Below are positions 8,526-45,175 of a DNA stretch of 64,000 bases, piece by piece. The translations under genes and the position numbers were made by a program. Within the stretch, counting starts at the first letter, position 1; each line of letters starts with the position of its first letter. The stretch comes from Candidatus Daviesbacteria bacterium. GTDB taxonomy: Bacteria; Patescibacteriota; Microgenomatia; Daviesbacterales; UBA10151. The notes beneath the pieces are model-generated. The model saw only the letters and a list, made by a program, of their open reading frames with translations. It was not told the origin of the DNA and searched no databases. The stretch lies in contig JAQTZF010000001.1 of NCBI GenBank assembly GCA_028687915.1, positions 482,634-546,633 on the forward strand. The letters are read 5' to 3'.

Positions 8526-8530
8526 GATAT

Positions 8531-9223: not shown

Positions 9224-9238
9224 ATCTTAAAATACGAC

Positions 9239-10126: not shown

Positions 10127-10154
10127 TGTTAACAATTATAGTGTTATGTTAACC
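10127..10154. promoter_or_regulatory. putative operator: TGTTAACA palindrome plus ATGTTAACC box 20 nt downstream
   Basis: Same GTTAAC-core architecture and spacing as 27982..28010, in the divergent intergenic region between 9239..10099 and wecB. A TATAAT lies at about 10111. Confidence 0.3.
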
Positions 10155-10162
10155 ATTTGTCT

Positions 10163-16450: not shown

Positions 16451-17247
16451 CAAAGAAAATAGACGAAAGAATTGCATACTGGGAGAATAATTATGTTAGT
16501 TATTGGAAAGATAGAGTTAGTAGTGCATCAGAAAATAAACTTGTTAAAAAGGACATATTGCCTCCAGATATAAAAATATTTCGTAAATATTACAAAAAAG
16601 CTTTAACTTATCTTCGTAATGATTCTTCTAGAATGCTTGATGTTGGAATAGGGTTTGGTAGGTCTGTACCGCTTTATCAAGATTATTTTAAGAACAATAT
16701 CTGGGGAAGTGATATTTCTCAGGGAATGATTGAAGAATGTAAAAAATCTTATCCGCATATTGCTAATCAAGTGGTGGCAGCTTCGGCTGAAAAGCAGCCT
16801 TTTAAGAATAACTTTGTTGATCTGATTGTTTGTTGGGCAACATTTGATGCAACTTATCAAGAAAAAGTATTATGGGAATTTCAAAGACTGTTGGATATTA
16901 ATGGTGTGGTATTAGTAACTGGTAAAAATAATAATTATTGTTTAAATGATAAGAAGGCTTTGGCTGCAGAAATTGGAGCAAGAAATAAGAATCACCCAAA
17001 TTACTTTACAGATATAAAGATTTTAAGGGAAAACATTGAAGATTTTGGTTTTGTAATAAAAGAACTTATTTGTTTTAAAAGACGAGGAGATTTTGCAAAA
17101 GATAATTATAGTAAGAAAGATTCACAAAAGTTTTATGAATATGTATTAATACTTCAGAAAATAAAAGATACAGAAGAAAAGAATTTAAAATTTAAGATTG
17201 CTGATGAGTTTAGCCAAAGTTTTAAAAATAAATATGTACAAAAATAA
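16447..17247 (+). CDS. class I SAM-dependent methyltransferase
   Basis: LDVGIGFGRSV motif I; DLIVCWATF. Confidence 0.55.
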   Translation: MTKKIDERIAYWENNYVSYWKDRVSSASENKLVKKDILPPDIKIFRKYYKKALTYLRNDSSRMLDVGIGFGRSVPLYQDYFKNNIWGSDISQGMIEECKKSYPHIANQVVAASAEKQPFKNNFVDLIVCWATFDATYQEKVLWEFQRLLDINGVVLVTGKNNNYCLNDKKALAAEIGARNKNHPNYFTDIKILRENIEDFGFVIKELICFKRRGDFAKDNYSKKDSQKFYEYVLILQKIKDTEEKNLKFKIADEFSQSFKNKYVQK

Positions 17248-17959
17248 GAAAATTGTTCTAACTATCTGTGCAAGAGGTGGATCGAAAGGATATCCTGGAA
17301 AAAATATTAAATCTATTTTTAGGAAGCCCCTTTTAGCATATTCAATTGAACAAGCTAAAGCTTTAGACTGGGTAGATCGGATAGTTGTTTCAACTGATGA
17401 TCCAAAAATAAAAAAAGTAGCTGAAAAATGGGGAGTTGAGGTTCCTTTTTTAAGACCACCGGAATTAGCTACGGATACAGTATCAAAAATCCCTGTTTTT
17501 CTTCATGCTATACAAGAAGCTGAGAAACACTGGAATGAAAAATATGATATTTGGGTAGACTTAGATGTTACCAGCCCACTACGTTTTTCTGAAGATATTG
17601 AACAAGCAGTTAGATTATTATTTACCCCTGAAACTATATCTGTAATTACTGCAATGGAATCTCATCATAATCCCTACTATAATATGTTAGAGAAGGATAA
17701 TAAAGGGTATATATCTTTATCGAAAAAGCATTCACAATCTGTTGTTAGGAGGCAGGATGCACCCAAAGTATATGCAATGAATGGGAGTATATATGTAATG
17801 TGGTGTGATGAGCTAGTAAAAAGAAAGACTTTTTTTACTGAAAAAACACAATTGTATGTTATGCCTCCTGAGAGATCATTTGATATTGATAATGCAGTAG
17901 ATTTTGAAATAGTTAAGCTATATTTAAAACAAAGAATAAAGTCTTGTGAAACTATATAG
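17234..17959 (+). CDS. neuA: CMP-nonulosonic acid synthetase (acylneuraminate cytidylyltransferase family; NeuA/LegF-like)
   Basis: KKIVLTICARGGSKGYPGKNIKSIFRKPLLAYSIEQA (CTP_transf_3 signature). ATG at 17234. Confidence 0.8.
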   Translation: MYKNKKIVLTICARGGSKGYPGKNIKSIFRKPLLAYSIEQAKALDWVDRIVVSTDDPKIKKVAEKWGVEVPFLRPPELATDTVSKIPVFLHAIQEAEKHWNEKYDIWVDLDVTSPLRFSEDIEQAVRLLFTPETISVITAMESHHNPYYNMLEKDNKGYISLSKKHSQSVVRRQDAPKVYAMNGSIYVMWCDELVKRKTFFTEKTQLYVMPPERSFDIDNAVDFEIVKLYLKQRIKSCETI

Positions 17960-19565
17960 CTGATTTTTTTTGCTTCTTTGAGTAATAATCATCTACCATT
18001 TTCTCTACTATTTTAATTTTTTGTTCTAATGTTTCACCACGTTCATAATCTTTTTTTGTAACTAGTTTACCCAGCCTGTGTTTACCCCGGCAAGCATAAA
18101 GTATATCAAGAGGTGTATTATCAGCTTTTTTGCCGTTAATATCTGTTGTAAAAACTCCTGCTGCATTCCATAAGGTCATTGAAGACCAGTCGTCTAAATT
18201 TCCTGTCCATTTCAATATCCCTTGTTCGATTAGAATGGCTAATTGAGTATTAGGGAGGGGTGTACAAATAGAGATCATGGCATAGACAGCACCTTTTTTC
18301 TCAAGCTTTTGAATATATTTTAATGTTTCCAGTGTTTGTTTTGGAGTTTCACCGGGTAATCCCACCATATTTAATAACTTAACCTCAATCCCTGCTTTGG
18401 CCATTGCTTCTGTTGCGTCTTCAATTGTTTGATTAGAAATTCTTTTTCCAATAGCCTGATATCGAAGTTCCTCATTGCCTGTTTCTGGAGCAATATGTAA
18501 TTGCCGGCACCCTGCCTTATAAATTAATTCTAGTAAATTCATCTTTGATCCTTGGTAAGTTACTGTATGTTTGGCTGCTCTAACAACCAAGTTAGCTCTT
18601 GTAATTGCTGTCCAGATACAACCTTTAAGATTCTTATTTTTTAAGATTCTTCGAGCAGTTTCCTCAACAACATCAAGAGAAACCAGGTAAAGGTCATCAG
18701 TTAAATAGAAATCAACAACACCCAGTCGCCTTAAATATTCCATGTGTTCAATTATTCTTTTTGGTGTAAGCCCTCTCCACATATGGCCAGATACTTCTTG
18801 ATCACAAAAAAAACAGGCATTAGGACAACCGCGTGAAGTAAGCATTGCTAATTGGAATTCGCCTTTTTGTGGCGTAAACTCAGAAAGATGATAGCGCGTT
18901 AAGTCTCCAAGTAATTCGTATTCAGGAATAGGTAGCTTATTAATATCTTCAATTCTATCAGCATGTGTTGGCCAATCCACTTTTGAGGAGGGTTTATTCC
19001 CTAAAAGTAACCTGGTATAACCACGTACAGTATCTTTTAAATAATGAAGTTTTCCTTTATTGTCTTTAAAGACAATTCCGGGAACTTTCTTTAAGAATTC
19101 CTGATTATCCCAGTTTTTAATTAGAATTGGTGTAACAAGCTCGCCTTCACCAACCACCTCATAAGAAAAAATATCACCGTACTTTTCCATTGTTCGAATT
19201 GGTACTGCACTTGGGTGGGGACCACCTAAGAATTGACGATATTTAGATGATTTGGACTTTAATTTAGCTGCGATTCTTGCTGTTTTATCAATAGTGGTAA
19301 TCCATCCAGCCCAACCCACAAAGCCTCCATTAGGCATTAATTCCTGAATTTTGGCTACAGTTTCCTCCTCTGTTAATAGCTCTTTATCTGCATCCAGTAC
19401 AGCTACATCATAACCTTCTTTCTTTAAATATGTAGCAACACATAAAATACCAACAGAAGGAATACTGAATGCGCCACCTCTGGATTTTAGTTCTGGTATA
19501 TCTCTTTCCGCAAATGAATTTGGAGCTACTAGCAATATTTCAGGGGTTGTTGTTTTTTGGACCAT
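17952..19565 (-). CDS. B12-binding domain radical SAM enzyme (class B rSAM-like)
   Basis: N-terminal Rossmann-like B12-binding region, then SRGCPNACFFCDQ (Cx3Cx2C), then a ~130 aa C-terminal extension. Paralog of 28059..29741. Confidence 0.7.
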   Translation of the reverse strand: MVQKTTTPEILLVAPNSFAERDIPELKSRGGAFSIPSVGILCVATYLKKEGYDVAVLDADKELLTEEETVAKIQELMPNGGFVGWAGWITTIDKTARIAAKLKSKSSKYRQFLGGPHPSAVPIRTMEKYGDIFSYEVVGEGELVTPILIKNWDNQEFLKKVPGIVFKDNKGKLHYLKDTVRGYTRLLLGNKPSSKVDWPTHADRIEDINKLPIPEYELLGDLTRYHLSEFTPQKGEFQLAMLTSRGCPNACFFCDQEVSGHMWRGLTPKRIIEHMEYLRRLGVVDFYLTDDLYLVSLDVVEETARRILKNKNLKGCIWTAITRANLVVRAAKHTVTYQGSKMNLLELIYKAGCRQLHIAPETGNEELRYQAIGKRISNQTIEDATEAMAKAGIEVKLLNMVGLPGETPKQTLETLKYIQKLEKKGAVYAMISICTPLPNTQLAILIEQGILKWTGNLDDWSSMTLWNAAGVFTTDINGKKADNTPLDILYACRGKHRLGKLVTKKDYERGETLEQKIKIVEKMVDDYYSKKQKKSAI

Positions 19566-19575
19566 AACTTCGAAA

Positions 19576-20748
19576 TTATATCATTTTGAAAACTTTTGTA
19601 TATGTATTTCCTTCTAAATCATGAGCAGCTACCCCAAAGTTTTTGTTTTTATCTTCAGGTAATAATTTGTATTCCCAGGTATCCTCACTTATTTTAAATA
19701 AGGGTTTCCAGGAATAAATATTTTTACTGTATTTGATAGCTAAAAAAGGCTGTTTGTTAAATAAAGTTTTATTAGTTTTAATGTTAATTTTTTCATTACT
19801 TTTTTTAATATTAAGCTTTAATGGTTTTATAGAAGAAATATTTTGAAATTGTTTGATTGCATCTTTTCCTGATTTATAAAAGAATTTAATTTTTTCTTTC
19901 TTTGAGTATTTTGATATCCACTCCATTACCTTGGTAAAATCTTGTTCTCTATCACGAAAATCATGATCAAAAAGAGAAAGGATAATATCAGAGCCTTTTT
20001 TGGCGTCTGCAAAAGCTTTTGCAATCTCTTCTTCGGTAATAATATTAACATTTGATTTAATATCTAAAGACCTGACAACTAGTCGCTTCATATCTCCTGG
20101 TTTAGTAAGGTCAGCATTTGAAGGGTGATAAGGCACCCAACTATTTGGTGCTTTATGCCATGGAAGTATATCTATTAATTTACTTCCATCAGCTTCAATT
20201 TTCTTCCAATTGATATGATCTCCGTTTCTATTAGAATAATCATAAGGAATCCATTGTTCTAACCAATTAGATTGATCAGTGTCTTCTATTGTACCTCCAG
20301 CCCGATAAGTAATAGGGAAAAAATTACAATCAATAATAAATCTGCATAATTGATTTTCGTATTCACGATTAGTAAACCAATCTGTGCCCCATTCATTACC
20401 GATTCCAGAAATAGAAGCATGATGATAATGCCAACCAATTTCATCACCATATTTTTTTATTTCTTTGCCCCAAGTTTTTAGATAGTGATCATAAACTTTA
20501 TGGTATCCAAAATCATGTTGAATTGGGTTAGTACGAAATCCAGTCCAATTTAACATAAACCATGTAAAAACGGCAGGATTGTTATTACTGTCAGGGAAAG
20601 AATAACGAAATTTATCAGAGAAAACTTTAGACAAAAAAATTCTATCAATATCTTTCCAATTGCCAATAAGCTGAGAGGGAAATTGATAGTTAGGATCAGT
20701 AAAAGGCCCTTCCGTATCAATACAAAAAACAACAAAAACTCTGCCCAT
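19576..20748 (-). CDS. hypothetical protein, possible divergent polysaccharide deacetylase (CE4/NodB-like) fold
   Basis: FCIDTEGPF resembles the TFDDGP motif and WHYHH resembles the HSxxHP metal motif, but weakly. Co-oriented with the rSAM and SDR genes. Confidence 0.25.
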   Translation of the reverse strand: MGRVFVVFCIDTEGPFTDPNYQFPSQLIGNWKDIDRIFLSKVFSDKFRYSFPDSNNNPAVFTWFMLNWTGFRTNPIQHDFGYHKVYDHYLKTWGKEIKKYGDEIGWHYHHASISGIGNEWGTDWFTNREYENQLCRFIIDCNFFPITYRAGGTIEDTDQSNWLEQWIPYDYSNRNGDHINWKKIEADGSKLIDILPWHKAPNSWVPYHPSNADLTKPGDMKRLVVRSLDIKSNVNIITEEEIAKAFADAKKGSDIILSLFDHDFRDREQDFTKVMEWISKYSKKEKIKFFYKSGKDAIKQFQNISSIKPLKLNIKKSNEKINIKTNKTLFNKQPFLAIKYSKNIYSWKPLFKISEDTWEYKLLPEDKNKNFGVAAHDLEGNTYTKVFKMI

Positions 20749-20751
20749 TTA

Positions 20752-21537
20752 TTATTTGCTCCAGCCTGGATCCCAAAGTTGTCTGGTATAACCAGCATCT
20801 ACTATTAAATTTGTACCTGTGATTGCATTGGCTCTCTTTGAAAGAAAAAATAAAACAGGATCAGCTATTTCAATTGGTTCGACACTTCGTCCTAATGGAG
20901 TTCTTGCTTCAAAGCGTCGTAGAATTTCTTTAGGTTTTGGGTCTACGTATTGTGCTTTATTTTTTTCTGTATTGACGTTACCTGGCGATACCATGTTTAC
21001 TCTAATATTATAGGGAGCAAGTTCCATGGCATAAGCGACTGTTTTCCCCCACAAATCGCCTTTTGCAGAAGTATACAAAACCACATCCTGTGCTGCCATG
21101 ATAGTTTCGATAGACCCAATATTAACTATTGATCCACCATTTTTCATTCGGCGATAAGAGAATTCAGTTAAAACAAGAGCTGTTTCAGAATGAGCAGTCA
21201 TCATCTTGCGAAATGATCGTATGCTTCTTCCACCATGACTTGAGTCAGAACCTAATAATCCTGCATTGTTTACCAGTCCATCAAGATTGGTAACATGACC
21301 AAGAGTTAGATGCACCAAGTCTTCATTTGCAGCGTCGCTTGAAAAAAATTCATAATCATGGCCAATTTTTAAAGAAGAATCTCTTAATCTCTGTTCTAGC
21401 TCTGATCCCTGAAAATCTTTTAAATCAATGCCGATAGGACTTGCGCCCTCTTTAAGAAGTTCTTCAAATATACAAGATCCAATCCCACTTGCAGCTCCTG
21501 ATACAATTATTGTTTTATTTTTTAGTTCTAGGTTCAT
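20752..21537 (-). CDS. short-chain dehydrogenase/reductase (classical SDR)
   Basis: TGxxxGxG (VSGAASGIGS) and YTSAK (YxxxK). Confidence 0.75.
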   Translation of the reverse strand: MNLELKNKTIIVSGAASGIGSCIFEELLKEGASPIGIDLKDFQGSELEQRLRDSSLKIGHDYEFFSSDAANEDLVHLTLGHVTNLDGLVNNAGLLGSDSSHGGRSIRSFRKMMTAHSETALVLTEFSYRRMKNGGSIVNIGSIETIMAAQDVVLYTSAKGDLWGKTVAYAMELAPYNIRVNMVSPGNVNTEKNKAQYVDPKPKEILRRFEARTPLGRSVEPIEIADPVLFFLSKRANAITGTNLIVDAGYTRQLWDPGWSK

Positions 21538-22682: not shown

Positions 22683-23831
22683 ATGGGAAAAAGAAAGATT
22701 GCATATGTTTCTGGCACCAGAGCAGATTATGGTTTAATGACTCCGATACTTCGGGCTGTAGCAAATAGTTTTAAATTAGATCTCCAGCTTTATGTTACAG
22801 GTATTCATTTGATGCCAAAATTTGGAGAAACTGCAATCTTTGTTGAAAAAGAATTTCCATCAACAAAAAGAATTAAATCAATTTTTAAAACAGATGAGAG
22901 ATTTAGTATGGTTGGTTTTTCAGGAGAGTATATTAATTTATTAAATAAAATTTTTCAAAAAAACCGACCTGATATGGTCTTGATTTTAGGGGACAGAATA
23001 GAAATGCTTTGTACAGCAATGGTTTGTCTATATTTAGGGATTCCTACTGCACATATTCATGGTGGTGAGAAGACTTATGCTGTGGATGAGGTGACACGTC
23101 ATGCAATTACCAAGATAAGTAGCTTACATTTTCCAGCAACAAAAGAGTCTGCAGAAAGAATTATAAAAATGGGAGAAGAAAAATGGCGTGTACATGTAGT
23201 TGGTGCACCTGCTTTGGATATTATTTTAAATAAAAAATTACCAACAAAAAAAGATATTTTTAAGACGATTGGATTGGACCCAAAACAACAATTTATTTTA
23301 ATTACTCAGCATCCTGTTAGTGAAGAAATAGCTATTGCAGCTCAACAGATGAGAGAAACTCTTGAAGCAGCCAAAAGTTTTAATATGCCAATTATAATTA
23401 CATATCCTCATTCTGACCCAGGAGGAAGAAGGATTATTGAGGTTATAGAAAAATATAAGAATAATCCATTGTTCCATATCTTCCCAAGTATTAAATATGA
23501 AAGTTTCTTAGCATTAGAAAGAGAGGCAGCAGTTTGGATAGGTAACAGCAGTGGGGCAATGATTGAGTCATCTTCTTTTAAAACACCTGTTGTGAATATC
23601 GGGACAAGACAAATCGGAAGACAGCGAGGAAAAAATGTTATTGATGTAAGTTATAATCGTGAAGAAATTGTAAAAGCTATTAAAAAATCCTTGACGGATA
23701 AGTCTTATCTTGCTAAGCTGCAAACTATCAAAAACCTCTGGGGTGATGGTAAAACAGGACCAAGGGTTGCCAGGATTTTGGAAGAGGTTGAGATTAATTC
23801 AAAACTGCTCACAAAACAAATAACATACTAA
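22683..23831 (+). CDS. neuC: hydrolysing UDP-sugar 2-epimerase (NeuC/LegG family)
   Basis: KIAYVSGTRADYGLMTPIL and an Epimerase_2 fold (HIHGGE). Confidence 0.8.
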   Translation: MGKRKIAYVSGTRADYGLMTPILRAVANSFKLDLQLYVTGIHLMPKFGETAIFVEKEFPSTKRIKSIFKTDERFSMVGFSGEYINLLNKIFQKNRPDMVLILGDRIEMLCTAMVCLYLGIPTAHIHGGEKTYAVDEVTRHAITKISSLHFPATKESAERIIKMGEEKWRVHVVGAPALDIILNKKLPTKKDIFKTIGLDPKQQFILITQHPVSEEIAIAAQQMRETLEAAKSFNMPIIITYPHSDPGGRRIIEVIEKYKNNPLFHIFPSIKYESFLALEREAAVWIGNSSGAMIESSSFKTPVVNIGTRQIGRQRGKNVIDVSYNREEIVKAIKKSLTDKSYLAKLQTIKNLWGDGKTGPRVARILEEVEINSKLLTKQITY

Positions 23832-25357
23832 TGCATGATAATTTTAAAAATTGGAAACTGCCTAAATTTAATAAATCTGGTATGACTAGATGGAATTGGA
23901 TGTGCCAGTATTCAGAAAATCTAAAATTGGGTAAAAATACAGACATAGGTGCATTCACTTATATAAATGCTAATTTCGGGGTTGATATAGAGGATTATGT
24001 AGAAATCGGGTCTGGTTGCAGTATTTATTCCAACAATACAATTGATGAAATAACTGGCAAAGTTATCATTAAAAAAAATGCTAAAATTGGAACTCATTGT
24101 ACTATTATGCCTGGAGTGACAATAGGAGAAAATGCAGTTATTGGTGCATATAGTTTTGTTAAAAATAATATTCCTGCAAATAGTGTAGCCTATGGTGTTC
24201 CTGCTAAAGTTATAAAAAAAGCAGCTGTTTCTGATGGCAAAATACAAATTGCTAAGCCCTATATTGATGATGAAGACAAGAAAGCTGTAATGGATGTATT
24301 AGAATCTGGTTGGCTTTCTTTGGGGCCAAAATATAAAGAGTTTGAACAAAACATGGCCTCATATGTTGGAACAAAGTATGCTTGTGCTGTCTCAAGTGGA
24401 ACATCAGGACTTCATCTGGCAGTAATAGCTTTAGGTTTAAAAGAGGGTGATGAGGTTATTACTACACCTTTCTCTTTTGTAGCATCATCGAATTGCCTTT
24501 TATATGAAAAAGTTAAACCAGTGTTTGTAGATATAGAAGAAGAAACTTTTAATTTAGACCCGGATAAAATTGAATCAGCAATTACAAAAAAAACAAAAGC
24601 AATTTTGGTAGTACATATTTTTGGCCAATCTGCACGAATGGATAAAATAATGAAAATTGCCAGAAAATATAAGTTAAAAGTAATTGAAGATTCTTGTGAA
24701 AGTTTAGGTGCCAGGTTTCAAGATAAGATGACAGGAACCTTTGGTGACATTGGTGTATATTCTTTTTATCCAAATAAGCAAATGACAACAGGTGAGGGGG
24801 CGGTAATTGTAACTAACTCAAAGCGGCTTTATGAATTATGTGATAGTTTAAGAAATCAGGGTAGAGGTCTTAGAGAATCTAAAAAAGGGAAGGATTGGGA
24901 TTGGTTGATGAGTGAGAGGTTAGGTTATAACTACCGGATGGATGAGATGAGTGCAGCACTAGGAATTACTCAGCTAAAAAAAATAGATTCGATGATAGAG
25001 AAAAGACGAAGGATCGTTGGGCTTTATAAAAAACATCTAGAAGATATAAAAAACCTGATTATTCCCACTGTAGGTAAAGATAGAACTCATACCTGGTTTG
25101 TTTATGTTATTCAGGTAATAAATGGTAAAAGGGATCAATTGATGAGTGACTTATCTTCCGCGGGGATTCAAGTTAGGCCTTATTTACCAGCGATTCATTT
25201 ACAAAAGTTTATGAAAAAGATGTTTGGTTTTAAAAAGGGTGATTTTCCAGTTTGTGAAAAGATTTCTTCACAAACGCTAGCAATCCCTTTTTATATTGGT
25301 TTAGATGAAGATAATATTAAATATATTGCAGCAAGGATTAGAAAAATACTTAAATGA
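23831..25357 (+). CDS. bifunctional fusion: hexapeptide-repeat N-acetyltransferase (LegH/PglD-like) + DegT/PLP sugar aminotransferase (LegC/PglE-like)
   Basis: Residues 1-130 carry LbH repeats (IGSGCSIYSN, IGTHCTIMPGVTIGENAVIGAYSFV). Residues 140-508 are DegT-like, with the PLP lysine in YSFYPNKQMTTGEGAVI. It is a single uninterrupted ORF. Confidence 0.75.
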   Translation: MHDNFKNWKLPKFNKSGMTRWNWMCQYSENLKLGKNTDIGAFTYINANFGVDIEDYVEIGSGCSIYSNNTIDEITGKVIIKKNAKIGTHCTIMPGVTIGENAVIGAYSFVKNNIPANSVAYGVPAKVIKKAAVSDGKIQIAKPYIDDEDKKAVMDVLESGWLSLGPKYKEFEQNMASYVGTKYACAVSSGTSGLHLAVIALGLKEGDEVITTPFSFVASSNCLLYEKVKPVFVDIEEETFNLDPDKIESAITKKTKAILVVHIFGQSARMDKIMKIARKYKLKVIEDSCESLGARFQDKMTGTFGDIGVYSFYPNKQMTTGEGAVIVTNSKRLYELCDSLRNQGRGLRESKKGKDWDWLMSERLGYNYRMDEMSAALGITQLKKIDSMIEKRRRIVGLYKKHLEDIKNLIIPTVGKDRTHTWFVYVIQVINGKRDQLMSDLSSAGIQVRPYLPAIHLQKFMKKMFGFKKGDFPVCEKISSQTLAIPFYIGLDEDNIKYIAARIRKILK

Positions 25358-26354: not shown

Positions 26355-27941
26355 TTAATTATAACGTTTTAAAAGGTTACTTACTTTTAACAGTATCTTT
26401 AATAGGAATGGGTATTGATTATTAATTGAAATAAATCCTTTTGTTGTTATGATGATAGAAATAATATAATCAAAGATCCCCAAGGTTATTCCCAATAATA
26501 AAATAATCAAACTGTAGATAATTCCGGTAATCAAAAATTGAATGAAGCCTTTTGGTGAAAACCCACTTAATTGAACTAATAAATATAAACTTAGTGAGAA
26601 TAACAACATAATTGTATAAAGTTTTACTGGTAGGTGAATACTTATTTCGTGTCGGATAATTCTAATAAACAAAATAATTGATAATAAATATATTAATGTA
26701 CTCGCGATGGCGACTCCTATTATTCCATAAAGATTAATTAATACAACGCTTATAATAATATTTGTTACTGCAATTATTAATGATGCTCTCATCCTTTCTT
26801 TAATTTTTCCCATTCCACAGGTAATAGTTGTTAAATAGCTTGATAATAAGGCAAGAATGGCTCCAAAAGCCATGATTCTTAATGGTGTTTCAATAAGACC
26901 AACCCACTTTACTCCAAATATTAGTTGAGTTGTCGCGGAAGGGAAAAGCATTATAAATAAAGAAAAATAAAAGCCCACAAATGAAATAATTTTTATACTA
27001 TTGCTTAACAGCTCACTCATCTTAACTTTTTCACCTTCCATAAGATGTGAAACTAAGGGAAGTAGTAAATTATTAATAGGGGAAAGAAATATACTGGGAA
27101 TTGATATTAAAGGAACAATGATATTATAAATACCCACTTCTCTAACATTTTTAAATAATGTTAAGAAAAAATTATCAGTGAAAGTAATAAAGGTATATAT
27201 GGATGTAGTGATTAATGTTGGTATGGCAAACTTAAGCATAGTGGAAAATAACTTTTTATCCCAGACTAATCTTTTTTCTCCAAATGAAGAGTTTTTATTT
27301 AATAGATATGTATAAATGATGGAACAGATTATGTGAGCTAAGGCCCATGAAAGAGCAAAGAATATAATATTAGAATAATCAAAAATAATAAAAAATATGG
27401 AAAAGATTAATGCAAGTAATAATCTGGAAAATTGAATAGAGGAATAGTATTTTTCCTGTTGTAGACCAGTGAACATCTTATATAAAGCCTCCAAGAAGCT
27501 GTTGGCAATAAAATAAATACAAAACAAATAAATTAGAGTTTGTGCTTCCGGTACTTTGAAATAATTAATGCTTAACCATGGTGCAATAAGGACTAGTAAT
27601 AATGTCAGAATAATTGATGTTCCAACCTCAATAATTTGTGCATATTTATAGATCATCCAACTCTGTTCAAAATCACCTTGCTTTATTAGTTTTGGCACAA
27701 GGTATGTGACGCTATAGCCGAACCCTAAATCTTTATAGGTAGTAAGAATTCCAAAGAAAGCCAATAAGGCGTAAAATAAACCATACATTTCAATTGATAA
27801 ATTATTAGAATATATTATTCGTAATACATACCCGAGAGGAGATGTTAATAGAGAGAAAAAAAGAACAGTTGAAGTGCCTCTAAAAATTCTGTTAGACAAG
27901 TTTTCTTTATTTTGCATAAGGAAGATAAAATTTTTACTCAA
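26355..27941 (-). CDS. wzx: Wzx-like polysaccharide flippase (MOP/MATE superfamily)
   Basis: 528 aa with about 14 TM helices and polysacc_synt-like topology. Confidence 0.6.
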   Translation of the reverse strand: MSKNFIFLMQNKENLSNRIFRGTSTVLFFSLLTSPLGYVLRIIYSNNLSIEMYGLFYALLAFFGILTTYKDLGFGYSVTYLVPKLIKQGDFEQSWMIYKYAQIIEVGTSIILTLLLVLIAPWLSINYFKVPEAQTLIYLFCIYFIANSFLEALYKMFTGLQQEKYYSSIQFSRLLLALIFSIFFIIFDYSNIIFFALSWALAHIICSIIYTYLLNKNSSFGEKRLVWDKKLFSTMLKFAIPTLITTSIYTFITFTDNFFLTLFKNVREVGIYNIIVPLISIPSIFLSPINNLLLPLVSHLMEGEKVKMSELLSNSIKIISFVGFYFSLFIMLFPSATTQLIFGVKWVGLIETPLRIMAFGAILALLSSYLTTITCGMGKIKERMRASLIIAVTNIIISVVLINLYGIIGVAIASTLIYLLSIILFIRIIRHEISIHLPVKLYTIMLLFSLSLYLLVQLSGFSPKGFIQFLITGIIYSLIILLLGITLGIFDYIISIIITTKGFISINNQYPFLLKILLKVSNLLKRYN

Positions 27942-27981: not shown

Positions 27982-28010
27982 ATGTTAACATATCAATAAC
28001 TATCTTAACA
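27982..28010. promoter_or_regulatory. putative operator: palindrome ATGTTAACAT plus second TTAACA box 20 nt downstream
   Basis: A 10-bp perfect palindrome and a repeated half-site spaced two helical turns apart, in the divergent wzx/rSAM intergenic region. Confidence 0.3.
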
Positions 28011-28015
28011 GCTCG

Positions 28016-28026
28016 TGTGATATAAT
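28016..28026 (+). promoter_or_regulatory. extended -10 promoter element (TGnTATAAT) upstream of rSAM gene 28059
   Basis: TGTGATATAAT lies about 33-43 nt upstream of the ATG. Coordinates are approximate to +/-1. Confidence 0.4.
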
Positions 28027-28058
28027 CGTCGAATTGGAAGTGTAGTAGTTTATAAAAT

Positions 28059-29741
28059 ATGATTTTATTTATTAAAAGTTTTGTCACTAAAATACCTTTT
28101 TCAATAAGAGTATATCTTTTATGGAGAAGTGTTTATATCGTATGGAACAGTCAAATTTCACCGTTTATAAATTCTAAAGAAAAAAAGCAATTTACAAATA
28201 AAATTTTCTTTGATCGAAATGTTATTAGCAAAAGAAAAGGCCCGGTAGTTTTAGTTTCTAGAGATATTGCTTTTACTTTTCCTTTGTCTTATGCATACCT
28301 GGCAGGTTATTTAAAAGAGAAAGGAATTGATGTTGTACTTTTATTTAAAGATACAAGTCAGGAAAAATTAATCAAGAAGATAAAAAGTTTAAAACCCATA
28401 TTAGTTGGATTTGGAAACTTATATCCTGAGTTAGAAGAAATTACACAGATTATTCATGGATTAAATAAAGAAGGCAGAGATTTTCCGATTGTTATTGGTG
28501 GGCAGATGTTTTCTCCTATTCCAGAATTTGCTATGAAATTAACTGGTGCAGATTATGGAGTAATAGGAGAAGGAGAAATTATATTACATCAACTCGTAAA
28601 AGCTTTACAAAAAAACAGTGATGTTTCAAAAATTGGGGGATTAGTAACACGAACAAAAGATGTGGTGACTATTAATAGTGGAGGAAAATATATTGATAAT
28701 TTATCAAAACTTCCAAAAATACCATATGAGCTTTTTGATGTTGATAAATGGTTGCTTATTGGAAGATGGTTTACTCAATTTAGGCCGGAACAACCACACT
28801 GGAGGTTTGATGACAGAGTAGTTAATGTTCATGGTGGAAGGGGTTGTCCTTTTAAATGTAATTTTTGTTATCACCATAATAAACCGAGATATCGGGATAT
28901 TAACGATATGATGGATGAAGCAGAGAAAGCGCTTAAGAGATTTGATGCAAATATGTTGTACTTCTCTGATGATTTAGTAATAGCAAATCCTGCTCGTGTT
29001 AAGGAGTTAATTGCGAGGGTCAAAAAATTGAAACGTCCAATTAGTTACAAGATATCAACCAGGTTTGATATTTTGGAACGCCTTAGTGATGAGCTTTTGG
29101 ATGAATTACACGCTACAGGGTGTAGAATTATTGGTTTAGGGGTAGAGTCAGGTTCTAATAGAATCTTAAAGTTAATTGGCAAGAATATAACATCTGATAA
29201 AATATTAAAAGGACTTAAGAGAATTAAAAAGTCGGGTATACTTCCAACTGTTTCTGCTATGGTCGGTCAATACACCGAGACCAGGGAAGATGTAGCAAAA
29301 ACTGAGTTGTTGATGAAGAAAGCTGTTAAAGATAATCCTTTAATTTCATTTGCTTTTACAATTACGACTCCATTTCCAGGATCTGAATTATACGACATAT
29401 TGTTTGCTAAAAAGTTACTTAAAAATGACGAAGAGTTTTATTATCGATATATAGCAGGAAAAGTTGGACCATGGAATCAAGTTGTTAATATGTCTGCTAT
29501 GTCAGATTATGAGGTGATTAAAATGAGGAATGAACTTGAGAAAAGTTATGATCACGAAAGAATGAAAGCATATGGCGAAGAGAGATTTAATAAAATAAGT
29601 CAGATTTGTAAAAAACAACGAAAAGCTGCAGAAGTCTTTGAAAGTAAATCTAAAAAGGATAGGAAAAAAAGCGAGAAAGCGTACTCTGCAGAACAATTAG
29701 AGTTAGAAAATGAAAAATTGTCTTTAATGGGTGTAGTTTAA
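28059..29741 (+). CDS. B12-binding domain radical SAM enzyme (class B rSAM-like)
   Basis: B12-binding-like N-domain (VVLVSRDIAFTFPLSYAYLAGYLKEKGIDVVLL), then GGRGCPFKCNFCYHH (Cx3Cx2C) and a Lys-rich C-terminal tail. Confidence 0.7.
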   Translation: MILFIKSFVTKIPFSIRVYLLWRSVYIVWNSQISPFINSKEKKQFTNKIFFDRNVISKRKGPVVLVSRDIAFTFPLSYAYLAGYLKEKGIDVVLLFKDTSQEKLIKKIKSLKPILVGFGNLYPELEEITQIIHGLNKEGRDFPIVIGGQMFSPIPEFAMKLTGADYGVIGEGEIILHQLVKALQKNSDVSKIGGLVTRTKDVVTINSGGKYIDNLSKLPKIPYELFDVDKWLLIGRWFTQFRPEQPHWRFDDRVVNVHGGRGCPFKCNFCYHHNKPRYRDINDMMDEAEKALKRFDANMLYFSDDLVIANPARVKELIARVKKLKRPISYKISTRFDILERLSDELLDELHATGCRIIGLGVESGSNRILKLIGKNITSDKILKGLKRIKKSGILPTVSAMVGQYTETREDVAKTELLMKKAVKDNPLISFAFTITTPFPGSELYDILFAKKLLKNDEEFYYRYIAGKVGPWNQVVNMSAMSDYEVIKMRNELEKSYDHERMKAYGEERFNKISQICKKQRKAAEVFESKSKKDRKKSEKAYSAEQLELENEKLSLMGVV

Positions 29742-29760: not shown

Positions 29761-30522
29761 TTAGGACACATCGGCATTTCGATTTGTTTCTTCAAGAATG
29801 TGATGATATTTTTCAAATACTTCTGTTGGGTCTCCTTCGGTAATTAACTTCCCGTGGTCAAGTAAAATTACCCTTTCGCAAAACTTTTTAACTGATTGTT
29901 CACTATGGCTAACAAAGATAATTGTTTTTTCTCTGGACTTCTTTATTTCTTGTAAGTAATTTAAGCATTTTCTTTGAAAATCTTCGTCTCCGACTGCCAA
30001 AACCTCGTCGATTAAGAGTAGTGGAGCATTTGTATTAATAGCAATGGAAAAAGCAAGGCGCATATACATACCTGAGGAGTATTTCTTTACCGGTGCGTAG
30101 ATAAAATCTTTCAATTCAGAAAATTCGATAATATCATTTAGTTTTATTTCGATTTCTTTTTTGTGTAAGCCTAAGATAGCAGCATTTAGAAAAATATTTT
30201 CATAACCTGTTAATTCATGATGAAATCCAGCGCCCAGTTCAATTAAAGGAGCAACTTTTCCAGTAATTATTACTTTCCCTCTTGTTGGTGTTGTAACTCC
30301 AGCAATTAATTTCAATGCAGTTGATTTACCGGCGCCGTTTTTTCCAATTATACCGACTGTTTCTCCCTGAAAAATATTAAATGTGACATCATCAAGAGCA
30401 GCTACTTTTTTAGCCCAGGGTTTTCCTAAAAAAAGATTAGGTAAAAATTCCTTAAAAGTTTTTTCCTCTTGAATATAAAAATCCTTAGAAACTTTATCAA
30501 AAATGATTACAGGTTTATCCAT
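29761..30522 (-). CDS. wzt: ABC exporter ATP-binding protein (Wzt/TagH/KpsT-like)
   Basis: Walker A GKNGAGKST; ABC signature; Walker B LLLIDEVLAVGD. Confidence 0.8.
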   Translation of the reverse strand: MDKPVIIFDKVSKDFYIQEEKTFKEFLPNLFLGKPWAKKVAALDDVTFNIFQGETVGIIGKNGAGKSTALKLIAGVTTPTRGKVIITGKVAPLIELGAGFHHELTGYENIFLNAAILGLHKKEIEIKLNDIIEFSELKDFIYAPVKKYSSGMYMRLAFSIAINTNAPLLLIDEVLAVGDEDFQRKCLNYLQEIKKSREKTIIFVSHSEQSVKKFCERVILLDHGKLITEGDPTEVFEKYHHILEETNRNADVS

Positions 30523-30524
30523 AG

Positions 30525-31307
30525 TTAAACAATATCAGCAAAAACTTTTTCACTTTTCTTGAAAAAGATATAACTAATTACGAAAATAAATACAGAAATT
30601 ATTAAAGACCAGCAAATAGTTCCTGTATCAAAAGCCAGATTAAATAGTGCTGATCTATACCCTTCAATAATTCCAACCATAGGATTTAATTTATAGATGG
30701 ATATATATTTCTCAGGAACTAATGAAAGTGCATATACAACAGGAGTTAGATAAGTCCACAGAAGAAGTAGAAGTGTGACAAGATATTGTATATCTCTGTA
30801 GAATAAATTAAAGGTACTAAAGAACAGAGATAATCCACTCATAAGAATTATTTGAATAATAAACAAAGGAATAATATATAAAGTTGTTAGGCCAATCGGG
30901 ATATGATAAACAACCATAAAGATAAACAAAAGCGATAAAGCAAATACGAAGTCAACTGTTTTGGAAAGTACAACAGAATAGATTAATATCTCGCGTGGGA
31001 AATAAACTTTTCTGATTAAATCAGCATTATCTACTAATGAGGTTGTGGCACTAGCTAAAACATTTTGCATATAGATCCATGGTAATAGACCAGCAAAAAG
31101 AAAGACTGGATATGGGATATTATTTGTTGGAAATTTAAATATTACAGAAAATACAAATGTGTATACCAAAAGCTGTGCTAAAGGATTAATTAAAACCCAG
31201 GCATAACCAATAATTGATTGTTTGTATCGTGCTTTAATTGATCTTTGGGTAAGTTGAAAAAGTAGATATTTATGAGTAAGAAAAGGTGTAGCTAGTTCTT
31301 TTAGCAT
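30525..31307 (-). CDS. wzm: ABC-2 type exporter permease (Wzm/TagG/KpsM-like)
   Basis: 260 aa with 6 TM helices; ABC-2 topology; translationally coupled to the ATPase. Confidence 0.7.
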   Translation of the reverse strand: MLKELATPFLTHKYLLFQLTQRSIKARYKQSIIGYAWVLINPLAQLLVYTFVFSVIFKFPTNNIPYPVFLFAGLLPWIYMQNVLASATTSLVDNADLIRKVYFPREILIYSVVLSKTVDFVFALSLLFIFMVVYHIPIGLTTLYIIPLFIIQIILMSGLSLFFSTFNLFYRDIQYLVTLLLLLWTYLTPVVYALSLVPEKYISIYKLNPMVGIIEGYRSALFNLAFDTGTICWSLIISVFIFVISYIFFKKSEKVFADIV

Positions 31308-32388: not shown

Positions 32389-34479
32389 TTAGGATAATTT
32401 CTTTTGCATAGAATATAATTTCCTTCCAGTAAGCAAGACCACACTAGTGTTTATTATAAAAGCTGCTAAAAATAATTGCTTTGGAAAATCCCAATAATAC
32501 ATCGCTTTTATCCACCAAAAATCTGGTACTCTTTCAAAGATTTGGGTATGAATATGCCATGTTTTCCAAAGGTCCTGGTTAGTTCCTCCGTAATTTTGGT
32601 ACGGTTTTCCAGTCATTTTAGGTCCAAGTGGGGATACATAGGGAACATCTAAACTCTCCAAATTTACAGGGAGATTATTAATACTATAGCTAATTAATCC
32701 TAATATTTGAGTATGTTTTTTGACTATGGTAGGGTCTTTGAATTGAACCTTAATTACCAATTGGTTATCGGTAGGTTTTAGGTATTCTTTTTTAATTGGT
32801 ATTTCTATCAACTTCCTTTCCTTTAGTATTAAAGTTTCAGGTTTAGTTAGTAATGGGTAGTTATTCAGTAAAAATTCTATGTGAGCAGAAGAGCTTGAGT
32901 CTCCAACAGGATGGTTAATAACACCAAAAGCCATTTTTTGAATAGGATTATCTAATTTATCATCAAAAGATATATACCCGCTTTCTTCGATAACTCTCCA
33001 TCTTTCCCGACCAACATTAAAAGGAAAATCAATACCATCGTAGAATCTAACATTAAAAAGGCCATGATCTAATGTCTTAGGAAAAGATCTGGTTATTTTA
33101 ACTAAGTTTTTTGTTTGAATGTAAAGTGGGCTAAAACGAGGTATATAGTTGCTGTATATGGGAACTGCATATTCAACTCCATTTACAAAGAAACGGCTTT
33201 CTAGATTTTGATATTTGATTTGATAAGGCATGAAGATGCCCAAAAACTCTATATATAAACCAAAAAGTGCAAGCGGTAAAAATATTAATAGCCTATACTT
33301 ATTAGAGATTGTTGAGTAAAGTTTAGCCACAATAAGCATGGCAAAAGGTATTAATACGCTTAAATAACGTGGGCCCCAACTTGATTCTCCATGCCACATT
33401 TCTGCAAAATATTGATCAGCTTTTCTATATCCATATTGAGAGGAAAAGAAGAGAATATAAATTACTGATAGGAGTAGAAAAATTATTAATTCTGGTTTTA
33501 GTTGAGGGCGAATTTTATGCCAGAAAATAAAAATGATTAGTACTAAAGGGGTATACAAAAAGAAGCTTCTCCCTGGACTAAATAATTGCCCCCAGAAGCC
33601 GTCAATAAAAACTTTAAAAGGCATAGTTGCTAAGATATCAGTAATATAAGTTGAGTAAAAAGCTGCTGTAACCATATTTACGGTGGGTTCCGCGCGTGTG
33701 GTTTCAAACCATACATAAGTGTAGATAAAGGGGGATACACCTATTAGAAAGGCTAGTAGGTCTCTGGTTATAATCTTTAATGAGTTTAGTTTTGGTTTTA
33801 CCAACATCAGGTAATAAAGCAGAAGTAATGGTGCTGATAATATAAAAGTTTGGTTATATGCGAGAATGACTATTCCATAAGAAATAGCTGAAAAAAATAA
33901 GAAAATAGGTTTGCGTGATAAAGAATATTTTTTTACTAAGAAGAAGGATAGTATAAGAAAAGTAATAAACATCATATGAGCTACACTATGTTTGCTATAA
34001 ACTAATAAGTTTGTGGTAAACAATGAAACAATACTCATGAACAAAGCTGGTTTTGGTTTAATCTTTAAGGCTAGAAAATAAAGAAAAAGTACTACTCCTA
34101 AAATAGCAGCAAAGAAAGAGTTGGTGAAACTTGCCAATAAAAAGATGAGCCAGTCTGATTCTAGGGGAAAATGAACAGGAGGAGCAACATTGTAGTATTT
34201 ATATACCATGTCTGTGATTGCAACTGCTGGTAAATAAGCCAGAGAAAATCCTAGTCCTGTTGGACTGTAGGTTTTTCCATCTCTTCCAATATAGGTGCTC
34301 ATATGGATATTCTTATCCAAGTTAAACTCATATAGCGGGCCTGTAGGTTCTCCTTTATAATAAATATTACGTGCAACAGCTAGATATTGAAGTCCGTCCT
34401 GAGAATCTATCACGCCAGACGATAGAAAAACAAAAGTTGAGCAAAGAAATAGAAAATAGTAAATTATCAGTCTTTTCAT
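32389..34479 (-). CDS. large polytopic membrane protein, GT-C-like glycosyltransferase with C-terminal extracytoplasmic domain
   Basis: 696 aa; N-terminal DSQDGLQY loop motif; at least 12 TM helices; ~250 aa soluble C-terminal domain. Confidence 0.45.
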   Translation of the reverse strand: MKRLIIYYFLFLCSTFVFLSSGVIDSQDGLQYLAVARNIYYKGEPTGPLYEFNLDKNIHMSTYIGRDGKTYSPTGLGFSLAYLPAVAITDMVYKYYNVAPPVHFPLESDWLIFLLASFTNSFFAAILGVVLFLYFLALKIKPKPALFMSIVSLFTTNLLVYSKHSVAHMMFITFLILSFFLVKKYSLSRKPIFLFFSAISYGIVILAYNQTFILSAPLLLLYYLMLVKPKLNSLKIITRDLLAFLIGVSPFIYTYVWFETTRAEPTVNMVTAAFYSTYITDILATMPFKVFIDGFWGQLFSPGRSFFLYTPLVLIIFIFWHKIRPQLKPELIIFLLLSVIYILFFSSQYGYRKADQYFAEMWHGESSWGPRYLSVLIPFAMLIVAKLYSTISNKYRLLIFLPLALFGLYIEFLGIFMPYQIKYQNLESRFFVNGVEYAVPIYSNYIPRFSPLYIQTKNLVKITRSFPKTLDHGLFNVRFYDGIDFPFNVGRERWRVIEESGYISFDDKLDNPIQKMAFGVINHPVGDSSSSAHIEFLLNNYPLLTKPETLILKERKLIEIPIKKEYLKPTDNQLVIKVQFKDPTIVKKHTQILGLISYSINNLPVNLESLDVPYVSPLGPKMTGKPYQNYGGTNQDLWKTWHIHTQIFERVPDFWWIKAMYYWDFPKQLFLAAFIINTSVVLLTGRKLYSMQKKLS

Positions 34480-38553: not shown

Positions 38554-40284
38554 TTACTTCTTCAAGTTAGATTCAAATATAAACATTTCATTATCTAGTC
38601 TTTTTATGCCTGATTTTGTGGATAGTTTCTCAATAAACGAGGGTAACTGTGCGTAAACCTCTCTTGGCAGTTGGTCTTCATTAAATTTTACAACATCTGT
38701 TTTAGAATTAGTCAACGCGTCAATGAACATCTCTACATTATTATCAATTATAGCTGTATATAGATTATAGGATAAAGTATATAAATGGGGCATATCATAA
38801 CTACTATAACCATTGATGAGGTAACATTGGTGGTAGGTAGAGGCTAATTGAACTTTACTAATATAATTTAAACCCGAAACGATATCCGGATAAGCGTTTA
38901 GGTGAGTAACGGGAATTTCAAGCACTGCTAACTTTTTTGATGAACATAAATCTTTAAGGGTAATGTAATGGTTGTTGATATAAGTTTCTGAATGAGTAGT
39001 TATTCCAACTGGAACGTATTCAAGGAAAAATATTACTAAAAGAGCTATAAAAAGTAAACGTGAGTCAATCTTTGCTTGGAGCTTTTTAATGCCCAGAAGC
39101 GCAAAGTAAATTATACCGATGGTAAATATAAAGTACCAACGGCTGGGAGCTCTGATCTCTTGGACTAGAGGAATAATTCTTAATAATAGATCATATGGTG
39201 TTGGGATGTAGGCGTATACGCCGTTAAAATTTAATCGTGGTCCGAGAGAAAACAAGAATCCAAAAAATAACAAGCTTGTAAAGAGTAATTGCTCTTTATT
39301 GATGTCGAAACGAAAAATAAGTTTATTCTGAACTTTTTTGATATCGAAAAAACTATATAAAAAAAGCAAAAAGATAAGTAATCCTGGAAATGATGACTGT
39401 CCACCTGAAACATTCTTATTGAAGCTGTTCCATTTATTTGCTATCTCTGATGTGTGGATAATAGAATCAATACGTGAAGTAAAAATATAGTCTGTTAAAT
39501 GGGCAGAATAAGTTACATTTTCAGAAAGACTGTGGTGAATATTGTATGCTTTTTTAGTATCAACATAATTTTTTATAAAATATCCATTTAGAATAATAAA
39601 AACTAAAAACACAATTCCTATGTTGCGTAAGTTTTGAAAACGGTAATTTTTTGATGTGATAAATTCAATAAAATAGAGCAGCGCAATGGTAAATATTAAA
39701 TAAAATGAAAGGTAGACGCTTCCGAGGAATTGAATCGCTAGAAAAATTCCAGCAAGAGTTAAATTCCTAATACTATGATTTTCCTGGGATTTTAAAATGA
39801 AAAAGAGTGAGAAAAAGAACGGCCAAATGAATATCATTTGAAAGTGAGAAAATTCAAGCATCTGAGCAGGGGAGAAAATAGTAAACAAACTCCCAAAAAA
39901 AGCAATGAAACTGTTTTTAAATAGTTTCCTCCAAAATAAATATGTTGAAAGGTAATTTAATATTAGGACGATGAAGAATGTAATATTAAAAGATAGAATT
40001 AAATTTTTAGTTACTAGGTAGAATGGTAACTCTAATAATGCTTGAGGTATAAAAGAATCTGCAAACAAAAGAGTGTTTTTATTAGGATAGAATGCATTCG
40101 TATCAAAATAATTATTAAAATTTAGGGTGGAGATTTTTGAAACATTGTGAAAGATCATCCAATTGATAGTCGGATAATCTCTCCAATCAAGTAAGTTTGT
40201 TGACAGATTAAAAAGGAGAGATCGGAATACGAAAGTTATGATAGTGAGGTATATTAGAAAATATATAAGAAAAGATTTTTTCAT
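38554..40284 (-). CDS. large polytopic membrane protein, GT-C-like
   Basis: 576 aa; about 12 TM helices; ~150 aa C-terminal soluble domain. Confidence 0.4.
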   Translation of the reverse strand: MKKSFLIYFLIYLTIITFVFRSLLFNLSTNLLDWRDYPTINWMIFHNVSKISTLNFNNYFDTNAFYPNKNTLLFADSFIPQALLELPFYLVTKNLILSFNITFFIVLILNYLSTYLFWRKLFKNSFIAFFGSLFTIFSPAQMLEFSHFQMIFIWPFFFSLFFILKSQENHSIRNLTLAGIFLAIQFLGSVYLSFYLIFTIALLYFIEFITSKNYRFQNLRNIGIVFLVFIILNGYFIKNYVDTKKAYNIHHSLSENVTYSAHLTDYIFTSRIDSIIHTSEIANKWNSFNKNVSGGQSSFPGLLIFLLFLYSFFDIKKVQNKLIFRFDINKEQLLFTSLLFFGFLFSLGPRLNFNGVYAYIPTPYDLLLRIIPLVQEIRAPSRWYFIFTIGIIYFALLGIKKLQAKIDSRLLFIALLVIFFLEYVPVGITTHSETYINNHYITLKDLCSSKKLAVLEIPVTHLNAYPDIVSGLNYISKVQLASTYHQCYLINGYSSYDMPHLYTLSYNLYTAIIDNNVEMFIDALTNSKTDVVKFNEDQLPREVYAQLPSFIEKLSTKSGIKRLDNEMFIFESNLKK

Positions 40285-45165: not shown

Positions 45166-45175
45166 AATTATTAAT

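Follow-up and report, generated by a model that had tools for sequence, protein, structure and literature searches.

What does a second B12-binding radical S-adenosylmethionine (SAM) enzyme do in the glycan island of a bacterium of the candidate phyla radiation (CPR), and is it a diverged copy of the first one or the member of a separate family with a step of its own? The question is raised by a stretch of 64,000 nucleotides (hereafter, the window) from Candidatus Daviesbacteria bacterium (contig JAQTZF010000001.1 of the assembly GCA_028687915.1, positions 482,634 to 546,633 of the forward strand), in which a 560-residue open reading frame (ORF; the target gene) encodes a class-B radical SAM (rSAM) enzyme, and a preliminary description of this DNA had put forward both answers. 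The product of the target gene is proposed here, with moderate confidence, to be a cobalamin-dependent radical C-methylase of a surface-glycan sugar. The broader claim, namely, that an intact class-B-type rSAM enzyme takes part in the glycan biosynthesis, is made with much higher confidence and draws directly on the domains and their fold, the intact motifs, the purifying selection, a context of glycan clusters only, and the fusions with glycosyltransferase (GT) and methyltransferase (MT) domains.

The Target Gene and Its Product

The target region holds no competing ORFs of at least 80 amino acids on either strand, and the translation is a 100% match to the NCBI record 'radical SAM protein [Candidatus Daviesbacteria bacterium]', so the gene already carries the generic annotation 'radical SAM protein'. 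The record lies on a contig of 1.096 Mb, which assigns the window to a CPR (Microgenomates) genome. By its arrangement between two genes of the opposite strand, it is read as monocistronic, i.e., transcribed alone. The B12-binding domain PF02310 precedes the radical SAM domain PF04055 (Table 1), which is the domain order of class B and agrees with the preliminary description, where the same order was given for both rSAM enzymes of the island. In the family alignment, the motifs GGQM (residues 147-150) and GEGE (170-173) of the B12-binding domain form invariant columns, and the three cysteines C263, C267, and C270 are invariant across 58 family members. The segments FSDD (302-305), ESGS (363-366), and VGQYTET (402-408) occupy the SAM-binding motif positions of the rSAM core and align with the equivalent segments of AprD4, QCMT, and OxsB, and the cluster motif GGRGCPFKCNFCYHH aligns to those of AprD4, QCMT, OxsB, and TsrM; in the same 58 sequences FSDD, ESGS, and GQxxET, together with GGQM and GEGE, are invariant or nearly so. 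The C-terminus is closed by a conserved L-x3-L-x-L-x-G tail, with L554 and G558 invariant in a 16-sequence alignment. In the comparison with syntenic orthologs, the ratio of nonsynonymous to synonymous substitution rates (dN/dS) was about 0.05, indicating strong purifying selection. Judged by its sequence features, the product is an intact cobalamin-type radical SAM enzyme.

The helical N-terminal extension was found in the alignment in the nearest relatives (P0004-P0024) and was absent from the more distant homologs, being a trait of a single subclade. The NCBI start of the ortholog in one syntenic relative (L007) is placed 36 codons further in, and the in-frame upstream sequence is conserved there; the start codon at 28059 is supported, because the 57-residue extension is kept as protein in the nearest relatives with a dN/dS of 0.13-0.16. 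No transmembrane (TM) helix is predicted within the extension, where the maximum of the Kyte-Doolittle hydropathy over 19 residues (KD19) is 1.31, under the TM threshold; tentatively, the extension may anchor the enzyme peripherally to the membrane. As a separate observation, one family member of 783 residues (P0173; aligned to residues 59-267 and 267-506 of the target) has its Fe-S motif interrupted by an intein of about 277 residues, which separates the first cysteine from the second (...GGRGCPFR / intein / CNFCYHH).

Fold and Relation to the Known Class-B Enzymes

The AlphaFold2 (AF2) model of the target, built from 58 sequences, reached a predicted local distance difference test score (pLDDT) of 90.3 and a predicted template modelling score (pTM) of 0.88. 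In this model, residues 1-57 form the N-terminal helices, the Rossmann domain spans 63-205, the partial TIM barrel 254-435, and the C-terminal domain of three helices 483-557. The Foldseek search against the PDB gave MgmA/QCMT (9CCB) as the best match (E 5e-21), followed by TsrM, AprD4, OxsB, TokK, and CysS, with MiaB and RimO after them. The target is predicted by this model to share the three-domain fold of the solved class-B members, since the same Rossmann domain, rSAM barrel, and C-terminal domain are present in MgmA/QCMT, TsrM (6WTE), OxsB (5UL4), TokK (7KDX), and CysS (9N1B), at E values of 1e-15 to 5e-21. However, these enzymes are only 12-21% identical to the target and act on protein glutamine, tryptophan, a nucleoside, a carbapenem, and a polyketide ether, and they differ from it by its own invariant motifs QPHWR, CNFCYHH..PRYR, and GGQM (the last in place of the commoner GGPH), and by the N-terminal extension of its subclade.

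The family profile searched against the PDB sequences had its best match, of 58 bits and in the core only, to AprD4 (6FD2), the rSAM 1,2-diol dehydratase of apramycin biosynthesis, which is also a good fold match and has an amino-sugar substrate. The N-terminal domain of AprD4 could not be aligned with that of the target, whose Rossmann domain aligns in the same comparison to TsrM, OxsB, and QCMT, but not to AprD4. The AprD4 type is recognised by at least 500 bits to the model NF033070 and by full-length similarity; the target scored 42.6 bits, over residues 252-459 only. This alignment of the Rossmann domain matters because AprD4 and ArsL possess a Rossmann-like domain that does not bind cobalamin, according to a 2026 review (PMC12931638).

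The best NCBIfam model was TIGR04072 (ladderane-type lipid biosynthesis), with 103.7 bits against a cutoff of 360, and the others gave 25-97 bits against cutoffs of 251-750. TIGR04072, PhpK, and BchE were the best-scoring curated models (91-104 bits; those of PhpK and BchE span both domains), with the target remaining far below their cutoffs of 360-600 bits. The target belongs, by this measure, to none of the named class-B subfamilies, because no curated model reaches its cutoff, those below it including PhpK, BchE, HpnR, HpnJ, TIGR04072, QCMT (TIGR04014), BzaD, the TsrM type, KedN5, and ApyD. It would therefore be classified as a class-B rSAM enzyme of the usual architecture outside the named subfamilies, not as a new kind of system.

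The same class and domain order are found in GenK, GenD1/GntE, and Fms7 of the aminoglycosides and in MoeK5 of moenomycin, the cobalamin-dependent rSAM Csp3-methyltransferases of unactivated (amino)sugar carbons, whose chemistry is the one proposed for the target, with MoeK5 reportedly acting on a lipid-linked saccharide; they make secondary metabolites, not envelope glycans, and are likened to the target by general class-B membership only. GenK, GenD1, Fms7, and MoeK5 are listed as characterised class-B methylases in the review (PMC12931638), as its examples acting on sugars.

Neighbourhoods and Fusions of the Family

The neighbours were clustered at 27 loci of the target family other than the window, and all 27, distributed across many phyla, are glycan clusters. 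The commonest partner was a protein of about 300 residues with an invariant DxD (U300; 18 of the 27 loci), followed by the TIGR04325 methyltransferase (215 bits) and GT2, at 15 loci each, an FkbM-like methyltransferase and a DegT aminotransferase (13 each), a GT-A-like protein and an NAD-dependent epimerase/dehydratase (12 each), and an FdtA-like isomerase (six). In addition, the rSAM enzyme of this family is repeatedly fused, in varied domain orders, to the Glyco_trans_1_2 (CgeB-like) and Methyltransf_11/25 domains (Table 1). Because the fusions are independent and of different domain orders, they provide strong evidence that the rSAM enzyme works together with glycosyl transfer and methylation, and by co-localisation and fusion alike the target can be counted among the components of surface-glycan gene clusters. 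The Wzm/Wzt exporter is adjacent to, or within a few genes of, a family member in the window and at three other loci (L021, L032, and L034). The closest analogue of the Daviesbacteria locus was found in Bdellovibrionales, with the order GT2, rSAM, Wzm, Wzt, and CMP-synthetase, and with NeuB two genes on.

U300 (e.g., L003:11463-12443), the most constant neighbour, also possesses an HRF motif and the pattern WW..C..WC..DQKY; nothing in Pfam, NCBIfam, or the PDB sequences matches it, the window lacks it, and it is probably a novel GT-A-like transferase. The giant fusion polypeptides resemble multidomain O-antigen assembly or termination enzymes.

Table 1. Features of the target gene, of its surroundings in the window, and of the fusion proteins of its family.
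Feature	Position	Strand	Details
Target gene, class-B (B12-binding) radical SAM enzyme	28059..29741	+	560-aa ORF, ATG start, Pfam domains
N-terminal extension, helical, hydrophobic/basic	28059..28229	+	residues 1-57; AF2 helices 13-37, 39-46
PF02310 B12-binding, Rossmann-type cobalamin-binding domain	28278..28595	+	residues 74-179; 67 bits, cutoff 32.1
PF04055 Radical_SAM, partial TIM-barrel core	28836..29303	+	residues 260-415; 84 bits, cutoff 29.5
GGRGCPFKCNFCYHH, CxxxCxxC [4Fe-4S]/SAM cluster motif	28833..28877	+	residues 259-273; C263, C267, C270
C-terminal domain, three long helices	29505..29729	+	residues 483-557; AF2 pLDDT >90
Candidate promoter block TGTGATATAATC	28016..28027	+	holds extended -10 (TGnTATAAT)
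Other B12-rSAM enzyme, 537 aa	17952..19565	-	PF02310 and PF04055; 8,494 bp from target
Wzx-type flippase, divergent from target	26355..27941	-	Polysacc_synt, Polysacc_synt_3, MurJ matches
Wzt-like ABC ATPase, convergent with target	29761..30522	-	ABC_tran
Wzm-like ABC-2 permease	30525..31307	-	ABC2_membrane
Fusion P0169			rSAM-GT-MT
Fusion P0170			GT-MT-rSAM
Fusion P0171			MT-GT-MT-rSAM
Fusion, Geobacteraceae metagenome-assembled genome (MAG)	L012:5301-9368		1,355 aa, MT-GT-MT-rSAM
Fusion, Geobacteraceae MAG	L015:3117-9350		2,077 aa; class-I methyltransferase(s), GT, B12-rSAM, and extra rSAM/SPASM domain
Fusions P0083, P0085			methyltransferase fusions

Proposed Function

The C-methylation of a surface-glycan sugar is regarded as the best explanation because of the cobalamin-type alignment of the Rossmann domain and the prevalence of methyltransferases in the class, every class-B group with a characterised enzyme including C-methyltransferases in the 2026 review (PMC12931638). 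By analogy, the cluster held by CxxxCxxC would reductively cleave one SAM to the 5'-deoxyadenosyl radical, which would abstract a hydrogen from an unactivated sp3 carbon, located either in a sugar residue or in a substituent on it. The radical thus formed on the substrate would receive a methyl group from methylcobalamin, bound base-off in the N-terminal Rossmann domain, and a second SAM would re-methylate Co(I). The net outcome would be a C-methylation (+14 Da), with 5'-deoxyadenosine (5'-dA) and S-adenosylhomocysteine (SAH) as co-products. The reaction would probably take place on the cytoplasmic membrane face during the glycan assembly, before the export by the neighbouring Wzx or Wzm/Wzt, and the candidate substrates are the growing or lipid-linked glycan and an amino-sugar nucleotide precursor. 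Within this scheme, the cobalamin binding, the transfer of a methyl group, the substrate, and the position modified are all conditional.

A number of findings weigh against the proposal. The family has no characterised member, with no NCBIfam subfamily model near its cutoff, and among the PDB sequences it is AprD4 that matches the catalytic core best (58 bits). Furthermore, the Daviesbacteria locus lacks the usual partners of the family (U300, the TIGR04325 methyltransferase, GT-A, and the CgeB-like GT), so that little can be learned from the genomic context about what the enzyme acts on here. The hidden Markov models (HMMs) of U300, the TIGR04325 methyltransferase, GT-A, FdtA, and the CgeB-like GT found nothing significant in the window, where the search yielded only a weak FkbM-like match at 13523-14473 and generic GT2 matches. 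In the general view, CPR bacteria lack the ability to synthesise cobamides, and the Rfam scan of the window revealed no riboswitch, including no cobalamin riboswitch; no corrinoid transporter is present among the Pfam-annotated ORFs of the window, to which this search was confined. Finally, non-methylating reactions are also known in class B, as those of OxsB, BchE, and HpnJ, according to the review (PMC12931638).

Alternative Explanations

A non-methylating radical chemistry on the sugar is considered unlikely, yet it is the alternative to be taken most seriously. It would comprise either a cobalamin-independent diol dehydration or deoxygenation like that of AprD4, followed by a reduction, or the use of cobalamin as an electron sink in a rearrangement of the OxsB type, an epimerisation, or a ring contraction. 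The standing of AprD4, which acts on an aminoglycoside sugar, as the best core match (58 bits), with a TM-score of 0.70 normalised to the target, speaks for such chemistry, as do the genes of the NAD-dependent epimerase/dehydratase/reductase family at 12 of the 27 loci, which could serve as an AprD3-like reductase, and the occurrence of cobalamin-free look-alikes within the class-B sequence network (PMC12931638). However, the AprD4 (NF033070) and ArsL models match only residues ~252-463, whereas those of PhpK, BchE, HpnR, and the TsrM type reach into or across the N-terminal domain; PF02310 is matched with 67 bits, twice its cutoff, with GG and GEGE invariant, and the family travels and fuses with methyltransferases rather than reductases. 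It is less probable still, and on the whole improbable, that the substrate is not a glycan but, for example, a lipid carrier, peptide, or cofactor, with the position of the gene in the glycan island being incidental (a polyprenyl-linked glycan is counted here as a glycan substrate under the C-methylase proposal). The best NCBIfam match, TIGR04072, is indeed a B12-rSAM enzyme of lipid biosynthesis, and the target gene is monocistronic in a genome lacking the usual partners; but 104 bits against 360 are no better than the scores of PhpK, BchE, and others, the glycan context recurs at 27 of 27 loci across many phyla, along with the covalent fusion to glycosyltransferase domains, and the position between Wzx and Wzt is kept in two syntenic relatives (L006 and L007).

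The remaining explanation, contained in the preliminary description as a 'duplicated and diverged tailoring step', would make the target a recent diverged duplicate of the first B12-rSAM enzyme of the island, i.e., a redundant or sub-functionalised copy or a decaying pseudo-enzyme, and it can hardly be credited. The two proteins share the domain order and the island, where they lie on opposite strands at the described distance of 8.5 kb (8,494 bp; target plus, other minus). However, their pairwise alignment gave an identity of 24% over 531 residues, compared with 43-61% between the target and proteins of other phyla and of archaea, so that the two copies are not each other's closest relatives; moreover, in the exhaustive search a sharp gap separates the target family (at least 387 bits) from all else (at most 229 bits). 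The other enzyme, of 537 residues, belongs to a rare family of its own, of nine proteins only at 44% identity or more, all other matches being below 30%, and this family occurs at the loci L038, L039, and L040 (around 8001-9770), all of them nonulosonic-acid loci without the target family. It retains the Cys triad and GEGE, with GGPH as its GG motif in place of the GGQM of the target. Neither copy looks like a pseudo-enzyme, because both keep every catalytic motif, including the three cysteines and the GG and GEGE hallmarks of class B, the loss of which in one copy would have been its sign; the target dN/dS is 0.05, and both genes are kept in the syntenic relatives L006 and L007. Thus, the two rSAM enzymes of the window are paralogs at the superfamily level only and represent separate families, and the duplicate reading is already refuted by the family-level comparison of their sequences. 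The other half of that early suggestion, two distinct radical modifications, is consistent with the data, since families and conserved partners differ between the enzymes.

In every context of the 537-residue family that was read (window 15128-21537; L038-L040), the neighbours were NeuB, an NeuC-type epimerase, and a CMP-nonulosonate-synthetase-like gene, together with Methyltransf_11, a dehydrogenase, and a conserved protein of the family found at 19576-20748 of the window. This enzyme is therefore a candidate radical/B12 modifier of a nonulosonic acid; no paper linking rSAM enzymes to nonulosonic acids was found in the literature search. A conserved pair of rSAM enzymes was also considered and rejected: a second rSAM gene accompanies the target family at eight of the 27 loci, from assorted subfamilies, and the second B12-rSAM enzymes of the Omnitrophota and Desulfobacterales loci (480/484 aa) are only 26-27% identical to either enzyme of the window. 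Likewise, the 440-residue protein beside the 537-residue enzyme was rejected as a distant Glyco_trans_1_2 domain (7 bits), which would have given both rSAM enzymes a GT-MT-rSAM triad.

Family Limits, Distribution, and Spread

The target family is large: the 120 best matches of the indexed search were all at least 49% identical to the target. In the exhaustive search, which covered 1.84 billion cluster representatives, the full-length representatives of the target family scored 387-584 bits at 43-61% identity, compared with at most 229 bits and 34% in the next tier, by which the family is sharply delimited. Among the GTDB species representatives, 29 loci with 45-83% identity were found, all from MAGs or single-amplified genomes (SAGs). 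The holders among CPR were Microgenomates, Saccharibacteria, Falkowbacteria, Uhrbacteria, and Zambryskiibacteria; among other bacteria, Desulfobacterota, including Geobacteraceae, Omnitrophota, Lentisphaerae/Victivallales, Actinomycetota, Bdellovibrionales, and Cyanobacteriota; and among archaea, the methanogens Methanospirillum and Methanoregula. In a rough neighbour-joining (NJ) tree, the target falls together with a Desulfuromonadaceae sequence of MAG origin (58% identity) and not with the other CPR copies (43-49%), and archaeal and bacterial sequences are interleaved; this crossing of phyla and interleaving point to a horizontal spread of the family. A compositional sign of recent transfer was rejected: the GC content and the GC content at third codon positions (GC3) of the target gene match those of the neighbouring genes, so the transfer is not recent. 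In the annotated plasmids, only relatives less than 28% identical to the target were present.

Significance in Relation to the Literature

Class B comprises 83,589 accessions in more than 100 groups, mostly unexplored, according to the 2026 review (PMC12931638). None of the characterised class-B enzymes named there is tied to cell-envelope polysaccharides, nor was such a paper found in the literature search, and the words 'polysaccharide', 'glycan', 'lipopolysaccharide', and 'sugar' do not occur in the review. Nor did the literature search yield any account of B12-rSAM enzymes from CPR bacteria or from the loci for O-antigen, capsule, or nonulosonate. Tentatively, and with less confidence than the C-methylase proposal itself, the target family may represent the first cobalamin-dependent rSAM enzyme dedicated to cell-envelope glycans, which would place a C-methyl or an iteratively extended alkyl group on an unactivated surface-sugar carbon, in a mobile GT-MT-rSAM module exchanged among anaerobic bacteria, CPR, and methanogens, with the glycan of the two-enzyme Daviesbacteria genome of about 1.1 Mb being dependent on corrinoids scavenged from a host or community. 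If true, the surface chemistry of an ultra-small episymbiont would be tied to an externally supplied vitamin, and a corrinoid need in a minimal CPR genome is intriguing. The family presents a concrete target for new sugar modifications, because it is compact, exclusively glycan-associated, and repeatedly fused to GT and MT domains.

Upstream Region of the Target Gene

The target gene was described earlier as having its own extended -10 promoter, and the box is indeed present: TGaTATAAT at 28018-28026, 32 nt before the ATG, is a textbook extended -10 box, and the block TGTGATATAATC holding it is unchanged in the window and in the relatives L006 and L007, in which the rest of the intergenic DNA is about 50% identical. 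The site at 28018-28026 was not called by the generic promoter scan, whose 13 promoter-like sites in the region are no enrichment over the 11.5 expected; a -35 box is not evident upstream of the target, and promoter rules are not established for CPR bacteria. A real promoter at this box is, on its sequence and conservation, plausible. The upstream GTTAAC palindrome of the same description exists at 27984-27989, but it was rejected as a regulatory element and is given no weight, because the hexamer occurs at chance frequency (13 copies in the whole window, 15.5 expected) and is not conserved, the equivalents in L006 and L007 reading GTTATC and AGTATC. The sole clustered occurrence in the window is a pair of GTTAAC sites 20 bp apart (10128-10153), just upstream of the UDP-GlcNAc 2-epimerase gene (10157-11257).

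The Daviesbacteria Glycan Island

The window contains a 60-kb glycan island with GT2, GT4, and GT-C-like genes, at least nine class-I or FkbM-type methyltransferases, and a nonulosonic-acid set composed of NeuB, NeuC, a hexapeptide-DegT fusion, a PseB/LegB-like dehydratase, and a CMP-sugar synthetase-like gene. The described position of the target between the Wzx flippase and the ABC exporter was confirmed by Pfam matches on both flanks, with Wzx on one side of the gene and Wzm/Wzt on the other, and the arrangement around it, including both rSAM genes and the Wzx-Wzt position, is syntenic in L006 and L007. The island encodes both Wzx and Wzm/Wzt, which implies that export follows two routes and that there may be two glycans. 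The Wzt protein of 253 residues is too short for an additional C-terminal domain, and no carbohydrate-binding domain is evident in it.

The fusion of a hexapeptide acyltransferase with a DegT aminotransferase (508 aa; 23831-25357), kept in L006 and L007, would act bifunctionally in the nonulosonic-acid pathway. Among the many methyltransferase genes of the island there are also an S-adenosylhomocysteine hydrolase (49698-50993) and a PfkB-family kinase (48728-49687), which may recycle the by-products of SAM locally. Eight large proteins with 6-13 predicted TM segments and without a Pfam match are encoded at 32389-34479, 38554-40284, 43489-47065, 51089-52201, 55168-58577, and 59636-60901, near two PMT_2 GT-C genes (52191-55152), the one exception being the mark DUF6311 on the L006 ortholog of the protein at 38554-40284. 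Their possible roles are those of a GT-C glycosyltransferase, a polymerase, or a ligase.

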